Source of the DNA: Candidatus Caldarchaeum sp.
Lineage (GTDB): Archaea; Thermoproteota; Nitrososphaeria_A; Caldarchaeales; Caldarchaeaceae
Length of the DNA stretch: 11,576 bases
NCBI GenBank assembly: GCA_038844785.1
Contig: JAWBRA010000035.1
Location: 1-11,576 of the forward strand
Reading direction: 5' to 3'
Part shown: positions 1 to 1,081 of the stretch, in pieces
How the letters are laid out: every line of letters begins with the position of its first letter
How positions within the stretch are numbered: position 1 is the first letter of the stretch
Made by a program: the position numbers and the translations under genes
The notes under the pieces: model-generated
Database searches by the model: none
What the model saw: only the letters and a program-made list of their open reading frames with translations
Told to the model about the DNA's origin: nothing

Positions 1-240
1 AACGCATAGTCGGTCCGAGCGAACCGTCCTATGCGTGCAGGCGGTCAGTCCGAGCGAACCGTCCCAAGGCCCGACTCCAGCCAAACCCTCCCCCGCCACC
101 CCACGATATCTCTGAATGGGGTGGCCGCCTTTTACGGCGGGTGTGGGTGAGGGTTTGTGGCTGTGTTTGGCGGCGGTTTTCCTACGCGTTTCGCGGGACG
201 ACCCTATGCTTTCACATCCCCTCCCCGCCTGGAGGGGATG
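1..240 (-). ncRNA. Putative structured non-coding RNA or leader, continuing 3' of the C/D module and running off the window
   Basis: GC-rich with no credible ORF. Stems: 215-224/231-240 (perfect 10 bp), 78-90/149-163, 95-103/117-125, 125-129/136-140, 2-9/29-36. A-rich loops (GTAAAA, AAA) favour the minus strand, consistent with the minus-strand TATA at 309-315. Identity unknown. Confidence 0.5.
9..64. repeat. Two 21-nt direct repeats (GTCRGTCCGAGCGAACCGTCC) with 35-nt period
   Basis: 9-29 gtcggtccgagcgaaccgtcc and 44-64 gtcagtccgagcgaaccgtcc are 20/21 identical. Copy 1 is enclosed by the inverted repeat ACGCATAG (2-9)/CTATGCGT (29-36). The array may continue beyond the window edge. Confidence 0.9.
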
Positions 241-290
241 GCCTCAGGGCTTTTAACCCCTCACGGGATGATCGTCCCGTTCATCATAGC
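241..290 (-). ncRNA. Putative box C/D sRNA, predicted guide for 2'-O-methylation of tRNA-Lys(UUU) U34
   Basis: Minus strand reads GCT-ATGATGA (perfect C box, 287-281)...GGGGTTAAAAGCC-CTGA (D box, 247-244)-GGC, with a short terminal stem GCT/GGC. The D guide is complementary to GGCUUUUAACCC, the typical archaeal tRNA-Lys(UUU) anticodon arm. It starts ~20-25 nt downstream of a TATA box. The internal D'/C' boxes are degenerate. Confidence 0.65.
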
Positions 291-308
291 AACATGCTAC
301 AAACATGG

Positions 309-358
309 ATTTAAGCGGATAGGTGGTGTTGCCTGTACTGTCCCGGCAACGCTTTAAA
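309..358. promoter_or_regulatory. Divergent TATA boxes with an intervening inverted repeat
   Basis: Minus-strand CTTAAAT (315-309) and plus-strand TTTAAA (353-358). GTTGCC (328-333)/GGCAAC (345-350) lies between them. Confidence 0.5.
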
Positions 359-380
359 CATCTTGGTTCCGGGCATTATG

Positions 381-496
381 GGGGATTGAATCTAGTGGCA
401 GCATAACCTGTCACGGCTTCTGGGTTTTGCTGAGGCTTCTAACGTTGCTGCCGCTGGCCGATGCTTAGACGTTTGACGTAAAGCGTCATTATTTTT
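381..496 (+). ncRNA. Possible small structured RNA transcribed rightwards
   Basis: 12-bp stem CTAGTGGCAGCA (392-403)/TGCTGCCGCTGG (446-457) with two G-U pairs that work only on the + strand. Starts ~23 nt after TTTAAA (353-358) and is followed by a GACG..CGTC hairpin and T-rich tract (468-496). No ORF. Confidence 0.3.
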
Positions 497-767
497 ACAC
501 CCCACCTCCGTGGAAAGGCGAAACTTCAAGGATTTAGGCCCACTTTCAAGGTGTCAAAAATTCTCCAAAACGTACTACCGTAACGCATGGAGAAAACCCT
601 GTGTAGAAAGCCGAAGCTTACGTGAATCAGGCGCTGTTTCAGACCAACGACAGACGTCGAACACCAATTTGCCCAAAGCAGCAGAACCCATAATAACACA
701 CTAGGCTGTTAAAACACGTAGGAAACACCGTAGGTTGTTTTGGTGTTGATGACGATTTTTTGCCTCG

Positions 768-838
768 ACAGTTATCTAAAAATATGGAGCACTATTACAA
801 CAGTTGTCTAAAATTATATAAATGTCAAATGATTGACA
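768..838 (+). promoter_or_regulatory. Orphan promoter: 18-nt direct repeats, TATA box and palindromic operator-like site
   Basis: ACAGTTATCTAAAAATAT (768-785) and ACAGTTGTCTAAAATTAT (800-817) are 16/18 identical and 32 nt apart. TTATATAAA at 814-822, then TGTCAA-N4-TTGACA at 823-838. The ATG at 844 opens only 9 codons. Confidence 0.45.
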
Positions 839-1081
839 CCATCATGTTTGTCAGCATTTCAGGGCCGCTTTAACTAGCCTCCACAACACCTGATACCCCC
901 GGGCCACTAATGAATACAACCCTGTTCACCATAAGTTTAGTACAGCCTCCCATCTATGTTGCTGCAGTGCGTGCACCAATCTATCAACAGGCCTGCCCAT
1001 CAGGCTTGAAAGACCTGTTGGTTAAGCCGTTCACGTCAACCACCGTGAGCGTGAAGCCCGAAGCATCCTGAACACCTCGCC

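Follow-up and report, generated by a model that had tools for sequence, protein, structure and literature searches.

A candidate half-mer box C/D guide for the wobble uridine of tRNA-Lys(UUU), carried by a repeated element in a Candidatus Caldarchaeum genome

Could a gene that sits inside a repeated genetic element still encode a guide for the methylation of a single tRNA nucleotide? The question is raised by 50 nucleotides (nt) on the minus strand of the window analysed here, by which we mean the whole 11,576-nt stretch that forms the first 11.6 kb of contig C35 of Candidatus Caldarchaeum sp. assembly GCA_038844785.1 (host genome G000: 1.74 Mb in 57 contigs, 50% G+C, with many intron-bearing tRNA genes). 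An initial annotation proposed that these 50 nt encode an unannotated box C/D small RNA (sRNA) whose D guide is directed at the wobble uridine, U34, of tRNA-Lys(UUU). The comparisons described below establish a family of tRNA-Lys U34 guides in related archaea, of which the window RNA looks like a derived member, and in our judgement there is about an even chance that the window RNA is a functional single-guide (half-mer) RNA for 2'-O-methylation of U34.

Read directly, minus-strand positions 290..241 give GCU-AUGAUGA-ACGGGACGAUCAUCCCGUGA-GGGGUUAAAAGCC-CUGA-GGC, exactly the string first reported, and the TATA box that had been placed upstream is represented by a TATA-like sequence at 316-307. 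The parts of the locus are as follows.

307..316, minus strand: TATA-like box GCTTAAATCC, a candidate promoter, with 21 nt between TTAAAT and box C
288..290, minus strand: 5' flank GCU, which can pair with GGC (243-241) in a terminal stem of 3 bp, one of them G.U
281..287, minus strand: box C, AUGAUGA, matching RUGAUGA, near the 5' end
263..280, minus strand: hairpin ACGGGA-CGAUCA-UCCCGU, replacing D' guide, D' box and spacer
261..262, minus strand: GA, between hairpin and guide
258..263, minus strand: C'-like remnant UGAGGG, 10 nt from box D, recognized by comparison with canonical relatives
248..260, minus strand: 13-nt guide, of which 248..259 is the 12-nt part
248..259, minus strand: D guide GGGUUAAAAGCC, complement of G30-C41 of tRNA-Lys(UUU), with A at 252 as the fifth base
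244..247, minus strand: box D, CUGA, near the 3' end
241..243, minus strand: 3' flank GGC, the potential terminal-stem partner of GCU

The description of this as a single-guide RNA with a hairpin in place of D'/C' was accurate: structure prediction folds the region as a hairpin of 6-7 bp, and the stem is kept in all copies of the repeat to which the locus belongs, with A-U/G.U and C-G/C.A variation. The putative promoter is GCTTAAATCC in seven of the eight copies in the host genome and GCTTATATCC in the eighth (contig C40). Rfam yielded no family for the sRNA or for the full repeat (no match on the window at the gathering threshold, on window 1-900 at E up to 10, or on the complete copy in contig C12 at E up to 1).

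Archaeal C/D guides methylate the nucleotide paired to the fifth base upstream of box D (N+5). Does the host possess a tRNA to match? The original pairing had been drawn with a typical archaeal tRNA-Lys(UUU), and it holds for the host's own gene (C9:13828-13932, plus strand), whose anticodon arm reads CCGGG-CUUUUAA-CCCGG. The segment G30-C41, GGCUUUUAACCC, is present and is the perfect complement of guide positions 259-248 (12/12 Watson-Crick), the thirteenth guide base being mismatched against G42; with C, C, G, A, A as the five bases next to box D, N+5 again falls on U34. Elsewhere in the genome, the exact 12-mer target occurs only at C19:12523. The tRNA gene contains a hairpin-forming intron of about 30 nt at a non-canonical position in the D arm, because of which ARAGORN miscalls it; among its orthologues, that of genome G004 (same genus) has no intron, and those of G064 and G058 have introns in or adjoining the anticodon arm. 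The three small ribonucleoprotein (sRNP) proteins that such a guide would need are encoded in the host: fibrillarin (C33:12456-13130), Nop5 (C33:13220-13891) and L7Ae (C3:62684-62956).

Box pairs of the form RUGAUGA-N26-44-CUGA number 61 in the host genome and 30 in a shuffled genome. When the 12 nt before CUGA of all 61 were scored against the 40 tRNA hits and the 16S gene (6,703 nt in all), 12 Watson-Crick pairs of 12 were reached by 2 of the 61 candidates, namely this locus and its paralogue at C20:547-590; one candidate, likely a 16S guide, reached 11, while 10 pairs were found for 10 candidates, nine for 36 and eight for 12. The 16S rRNA gene itself (G000:C7:41700-44906, minus strand) spans 3.2 kb for a 1.48-kb model and must therefore contain about 1.7 kb of introns; no 23S gene was found in the host assembly, and the sequence downstream of the 16S gene is protein-coding.

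Is this guide peculiar to the one genome? The layout sought in relatives placed a 12-nt guide to U34 of tRNA-Lys(UUU) between a box of either C type (C or C') and one of either D type (D or D'). The pattern UGAUGA-N2-4-UUAAAAG-NN-CUGA occurs in 11 of 401 genomes of the phylum (one hit for the reversed control pattern), and the 14-mer GUUAAAAGCNCUGA in 22 of 76 genomes of the order, including 18 of 35 in the sister family f4, with no control hits. Inspection of all 24 hits outside G000 revealed 16 full canonical C/D sRNAs, one per genome and all in f4; the other eight comprised one G004 copy of the repeat found in the window, three in a different repeat context and four without boxes. In alignment A5, the 16 follow the plan GC-N-RUGAUGA, a 12-nt D' guide (A/G)UCCUGGCUGCC, D', 3-5 nt, C', xxGUUAAAAGCY, CUGA, GC, with GC invariant on both flanks, a D' box NNGA that can also be read as CGAU or GGAU in a register shifted by 1 nt, and C' boxes that vary between UGAUGA, UGAGGA and UGAAGA. 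They are free-standing genes of 58-66 nt with 12-nt spacers and terminal stems of 2-6 bp. The anticodon arm of tRNA-Lys(UUU) is identical in G004 and in the four sister-family genomes checked (some of which have introns elsewhere in the gene), and the G004 tRNA-Lys matches G004's own guide. In an observation separate from the U34 guide, (A/G)UCCUGGCUGCC was seen to match, as a complement, some 10 nt in the D-loop region (CAGCCAGGAU) of this same tRNA (alignment A5, e.g. L048:1494-1555, minus strand), so that on sequence grounds the canonical sRNA may be a dual guide for one tRNA.

The window RNA and these canonical sRNAs (e.g. G058:C19:40683-40746) have in common the D guide, its register relative to CUGA and the GC(U)-RUGAUGA 5' end. 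In particular, they share GCU-AUGAUGA, CGAU (at 274-271 in the window, as in the D' box of G064's canonical sRNA), UGAGG, and GUUAAAAGCC-CUGA-G or GGUUAAAAGCC-CUGA-G; GGGUUAAAAGCC-CUGA in the window fits the family consensus of D guide plus CUGA, and the 15 nt GGUUAAAAGCCCUGA recur unchanged in the G058 member. The window RNA lacks the 12-nt D' guide, having instead the 6-nt ACGGGA of the 5' arm of its hairpin, and it differs from the canonical sRNAs also in not being free-standing, in its spacing, and in lying in an element with a gene for a RuvC-Nop-like protein (discussed below): neither an open reading frame (ORF) of that kind nor a tRNA gene was found within ±1.5 kb of the canonical sRNAs at 22 loci checked, and its association with the element is therefore a state derived in this genus. 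A model constructed from the sequences of the 16 alone (R2) gave C35:243-290 as its top hit in the host genome (E = 0.02, 15.4 bits). The guide alone can fold into a small hairpin; the same is predicted for the canonical G058 sRNA (it is not for the G050 member), and this is no evidence against guide function.

How might such an RNA have arisen, and how would it work? On the reading that we favour, the sRNA gene for U34 of tRNA-Lys, or a copy acquired from a sister lineage that shares its springs, would in this genus have come to form the 5' end of a repeated non-coding module of ~0.65-0.73 kb (module B), which is flanked by the promoter on one side and, on the other, by the coding region that a multi-copy gene has for a TasR/IS110-like protein (RuvC-coiled-coil-Nop). 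The D'/C' half would have shrunk to a hairpin, and the sRNA would have multiplied with the module and then decayed in most copies. As for function, we infer transcription, processing, formation of a kink-turn (K-turn) and methylation: a longer transcript would be trimmed to its protein-protected core, releasing the sRNA; L7Ae, followed by Nop5-fibrillarin, would bind the K-turn made by boxes C and D; the 12 guide nt that precede box D would pair with G30-C41 of the tRNA; and fibrillarin would methylate U34, opposite the fifth guide base. In favour of this reading, the copies that have the guide keep every element required by a half-mer guide, and the genes for the machinery are present. On this reading, the window and C20 copies, in which boxes and guide are intact, probably still function as half-mer guides, and the other module copies are decayed.

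Weighing against this reading is the context of the RNA. It is not stand-alone: module B, whose 5' end these 50 nt form, is GC-rich, indel-rich and non-coding and exists in a long form of about 730 nt and a short form of about 630 nt, to which the window copy belongs. The parts of the module in and around the candidate RNA are listed here.

1..361, minus strand: 5' part of module B, running off the contig
352..358, minus strand: upstream TATA-like box TTTAAAG, conserved in all copies
215..240, minus strand: 10-bp hairpin CAUCCCCUCC-AGGCGG-GGAGGGGAUG, directly after the sRNA and part of the repeated module

A BLAST search of 41 genomes with window 180-420 found eight host sites and one site in each of two genomes of the same genus (a 24-nt match in a fourth genome is probably due to chance), and conservation extends for hundreds of nt on both sides across the eight host copies; these copy numbers are lower bounds, as the assembly breaks in these repeats. 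Across the order, a covariance model of the first ~120 nt finds the module in only 3 of 76 genomes. Because the sequence is collinear with G004 (92% identity over 1.4 kb), there is an indication that the window module continues into contig C44 and thence into the RuvC-Nop-like ORF. In complete copies, the order is a divergently oriented module with a 74-amino-acid (aa) small ORF (about 40 copies), TTTAAAG, module B, an ORF of ~285 aa and a ~160-nt tail, with, in seven cases, a tRNA gene another 150-280 nt along. Several ORF copies have no module B, and there the promoter abuts the ORF; TTTAAAG is present in such copies too, ~27 nt upstream of a GTG start, and so probably serves the RuvC-Nop-like gene downstream as its promoter.

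The RNA itself also departs from expectation in several ways. Its terminal stem is only 3 bp long, one of these being G.U, and the 5' flank is not conserved among paralogues; the internal D' and C' boxes survive only as the remnants CGAU and UGAGGG; and the spacers are 6 and 10 nt long, whereas archaeal sRNPs need 12-nt spacers for efficient activity. The R2 score is marginal, in the same range as that of unrelated C/D sRNAs in relatives. Conservation of the sRNA part among the copies in C35, C20 and G004 does not measurably exceed that of the remaining module, and RNAalifold pairs CUGAGGCC with GGCCUUGG, some 180 nt downstream, in a helix that has no covariation support. Finally, two complete genomes of the same genus do not have the guide, which is therefore dispensable in the genus. 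The initial annotation had made conservation in related genomes a test of its proposal, and here it stands in part: the D guide and register recur in the 16 sister-family sRNAs, and both complete same-genus genomes lack the guide.

Much of this can be read in another way, namely that the window RNA is a relic, descended from a tRNA-Lys U34 sRNA and no longer guiding, which has been kept since hairpin 1, GUGA and CUGAGGCC contribute to the structure or function of a larger repeated element (RNA or DNA); three copies would then have an intact guide only because they are young. Ten copies of the module could be aligned. CUGAGGCC is invariant in all 10 and the first hairpin nearly so, while box C and the guide vary: box C is RUGAUGA in 5/10 and has been broken, to GUAAUGA, in the other five, and the tRNA-Lys guide is retained in only three (those of C35, C20 and G004), being replaced by another sequence (UGGGUUGAAGCC, AGGGGUUGAAUUC or AGGGUUUGAAUUC) or deleted in seven. 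No variant guide reaches at least 10/11 Watson-Crick pairs with tRNAs, 16S, or the 23S of G008 and G009, and genome-wide the variants have only 11/12 matches that are at chance level or multiplied by repeats. (The variants in C15 and C9 were considered as T-arm guides and rejected, as they pair only with the help of three G.U pairs, which is chance level; the 12/12 match of the C40/C29 variant, considered as an rRNA guide, is antisense to a protein-coding ORF beside the 16S gene and not to rRNA.) The three guide-bearing copies are 92-95% identical and so are not independent, and the non-canonical spacing and the close relatives without a guide also fit a relic. What tells against it is that the copies that keep the guide, each of which has an intact box C, have lost none of their boxes and none of the 12 pairing bases, and their N+5 register is unchanged; moreover, single-guide half-mer C/D RNAs are active in vitro. 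We consider a relic unlikely on balance, while taking it seriously.

A second alternative turns on the protein encoded beside the module. The ~285-aa ORF family has 20 or more copies and fragments in the host (e.g. L012:981-1838, minus strand, which is G000:C14:26980-27837, and L013:376-1206, plus strand), one of them just outside the window at C35:13659-14073. Sequence and profile searches of Pfam, NCBIfam and PDB gave no match, and the 160 database relatives are all named 'hypothetical' or not at all (where a source is named, it is an assembly of Ca. Caldarchaeum, Nitrososphaerota, Calditenuaceae or Thermofilaceae); the fold search alone was informative. An AlphaFold2 model (predicted local distance difference test score, pLDDT, 89) gave the following matches.

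TIGR-TasR (9mty): Foldseek E 3e-7; VIA Z 16.3, 245 residues aligned, root-mean-square deviation 3.3; over the full length
IS110 bridge recombinases ISCro4 and IS621: Z 14.7-14.9; over the full length
TasH: Z ~12.9; over the C-terminal half
Nop56/58: Z ~8; over the C-terminal half
Nop5 (3pla): Z 7.0; over the C-terminal half

In alignment A1 acidic residues are conserved in the RuvC-like half, and no invariant serine is found at the place of the IS110 nucleophile. From the model, the family may be an undescribed archaeal branch of RuvC-Nop RNA-guided proteins. The conserved ~160-nt tail that follows the ORF could be aligned in 11 copies that have the whole of it (examples on the minus strand, from the alignment, are G000:C35:13504-13658, C12:39586-39775 and C26:20820-20972), and segments of it flank most other ORF copies. 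It comprises a 12-bp stem (GGAAAGGCCGGC / GCCGGCCUUUCC) that encloses two variable strands of 12-15 nt on either side of an invariant central hairpin (CCGUAUCC-NNNN-GGAUACGG), then in its 3' part a second structure and a T-run; by analogy, the layout resembles the stem-loop unit of a tigRNA or a loop of a bridge RNA. The seven ORF copies that lie 150-280 nt upstream of a tRNA gene (C9:12868-13932; C2:73614-74694; C3:27433-28470; C26:20628-21619; C33:14604-15237; C35:13246-14071; C47:2014-2749) precede Lys-UUU once, Arg-UCU twice, Gln-CUG three times and Val once; tRNA-Gln(CUG) and tRNA-Arg(UCU) have been duplicated along with the element. This adjacency suggests tRNA-linked integration or a cargo of tRNA genes.

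With such a protein at hand, might the guide have been co-opted, so that the RuvC-Nop protein binds the 5' module and the variable segment between GUGA and CUGA acts as a programmable guide to DNA or RNA, in this case to the tRNA-Lys gene or transcript? The full-length match to TasR and IS110, together with the match of the C-terminal half to Nop5, would be in keeping with this, as would the position of the guide segment, the most variable stretch between invariant flanks, and the seven ORF copies upstream of tRNA genes, which fit a tRNA-directed guide. Like the RNAs of IS110 and TIGR-Tas systems, the module lies immediately upstream of a gene for a protein of the TasR/IS110 fold and has C/D-like motifs that flank a variable segment, and it is multi-copy and probably mobile. 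According to PMC12045711, box C/D-like motifs flank tigRNAs and bridge RNAs and bind the Nop domain, and the phylogenies of PMC11213020 trace Nop5 to an IS110-like clade of archaea that has died out or has not been sampled. However, bridge RNAs and tigRNAs have two guide strands, in an internal loop or as tandem spacers, whereas the window module has one variable segment, 7 to 13 nt long depending on the copy; the gene family can do without the module, which several ORF copies lack entirely; the catalytic serine of IS110 is not conserved; the 3' tail fits the layout of tigRNAs or bridge loops better than module B does; the variants that do not match tRNA-Lys have no convincing targets; and the canonical relatives do not lie beside such ORFs at any of the 22 loci. 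We therefore hold co-option to be quite improbable. Slimmer still are the prospects of a variant of it, in which a mobile element with the TasR/IS110-like RuvC-Nop protein captured a real C/D sRNA and uses the K-turn/guide unit as one of its own guide RNAs, to the tRNA-Lys gene or transcript; if true, box C/D sRNPs and the RNA-guided IS110/TIGR-Tas systems would be linked by an intermediate that still lives in archaea.

The remaining possibility, that a GGG-loop-CCC hairpin in a structured repeat coincidentally complements the anticodon arm between RUGAUGA and CUGA, draws on the folding of the guide into a small hairpin by itself, on the related copies with other loop sequences and on the very many windows scanned at the first stage, from which rare coincidences get picked, but with 12/12 pairing expected only ~4e-4 times in 6.7 kb of stable RNA, with a register exactly at N+5 = 34, and with the identical guide and box D, the CGAU and UGAGG remnants and GCU-AUGAUGA common to 16 canonical sRNAs, it is already disfavoured by the family comparison and seems to us a poor prospect.

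Several further features of the repeats deserve mention. Of 13 sequencing runs listed for the sequence, none is of RNA. In the contigs of four DNA runs, on the complete C12 copy, no joint that skips module B was seen; summed depth was several-fold to ~30-fold higher over the repeat than over the unique flanks, which confirms the multi-copy state. Window positions 9-29 and 44-64 (minus strand) are two 21-nt direct repeats (GGACGGTTCGCTCGGAC(T/C)GAC), 14 nt apart, each with the potential for a 6-bp hairpin; other module copies have one such unit, flanked by short inverted repeats. A CRISPR leader was considered here and rejected, these repeats being only 14 nt apart and hairpin-forming. Equally, a miniature inverted-repeat transposable element (MITE) or other terminal-inverted-repeat structure was rejected since the apparent right-end repeat is not conserved among copies, and an intron of the bulge-helix-bulge (BHB) type found no support: removing UAUCUG...CAGAUA from the C12 copy would keep the frame, yet there is no preceding start codon. 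The 14-mer GTTAAAAGCYCTGA (guide plus box D) occurs also in a second repeat family, without box C, that adjoins the 74-aa small-ORF module, at G000 C3:76540-76553, C4:14855-14868, C8:66206-66219, C18:177-190 and C45:9044-9057, as well as in G004:C7, G004:C68 and G007:C19; in C8 and C18 it directly follows sequence like the 5' half of a tRNA (GGGGTAACTCAGTCTGGCCAGAGTG...). The AT-rich window stretch 740-950, with TATA-like runs and a CATGATGG...TCAAATGA motif, is 82% identical to C20:1114-1317 and belongs to another repeated module upstream of module B, found also in C1, C15, C41, C44 and C48. The remaining genes of the window are ordinary, namely those for a luciferase-like monooxygenase, a branched-chain amino-acid ABC transporter, tRNA-Cys, a MacB/FtsX permease and a CARDB protein.

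How does the reading of the window RNA as a half-mer U34 guide relate to what is known of archaeal guides? Position-34 guides of Haloferax include the guide in the pre-tRNA-Trp intron and sR-tMet. Archaeal C/D guides for this position (e.g. those predicted in Pyrococcus for tRNA-Leu(CAA) and for C34 of tRNA-Trp) resemble the window RNA in having boxes C and D, a guide 5' of box D and N+5 on tRNA nucleotide 34; the differences are that here the target is U34 of tRNA-Lys(UUU), there is one guide, a hairpin stands for C'/D', and the gene is embedded in a repeat. The parts of PMC7668247 used here report 2'-O-methylated U34 derivatives (including Um and s2Um) and C/D-guided methylation of position 34 in thermophilic archaea; U34 of tRNA-Lys(UUU) is not among the C/D targets in those parts, and a limited literature search turned up nothing published about this lineage's C/D sRNAs. 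On that footing, a guide to U34 of tRNA-Lys(UUU) would be a new addition to the archaeal C/D guides, and a repeat-embedded half-mer beside a TasR/IS110-like gene a new form of them.

Should the guide be functional, the wobble uridine of tRNA-Lys(UUU) would be expected to be 2'-O-methylated in little-studied hot-spring archaea, and a C/D sRNA family for U34, with 16 canonical members, would be defined. A methylation guide reduced to a half-mer and carried, multiplied and decayed inside a repeated element is unusual among archaeal guides. Since the gene family beside it shares the RuvC-coiled-coil-Nop architecture with TasR and with the IS110 recombinases, which are proposed relatives of Nop5, the locus is a concrete place to ask whether archaeal Nop-domain nucleases and C/D RNAs interact, a question that bears on the origin of RNA-guided RNA modification.

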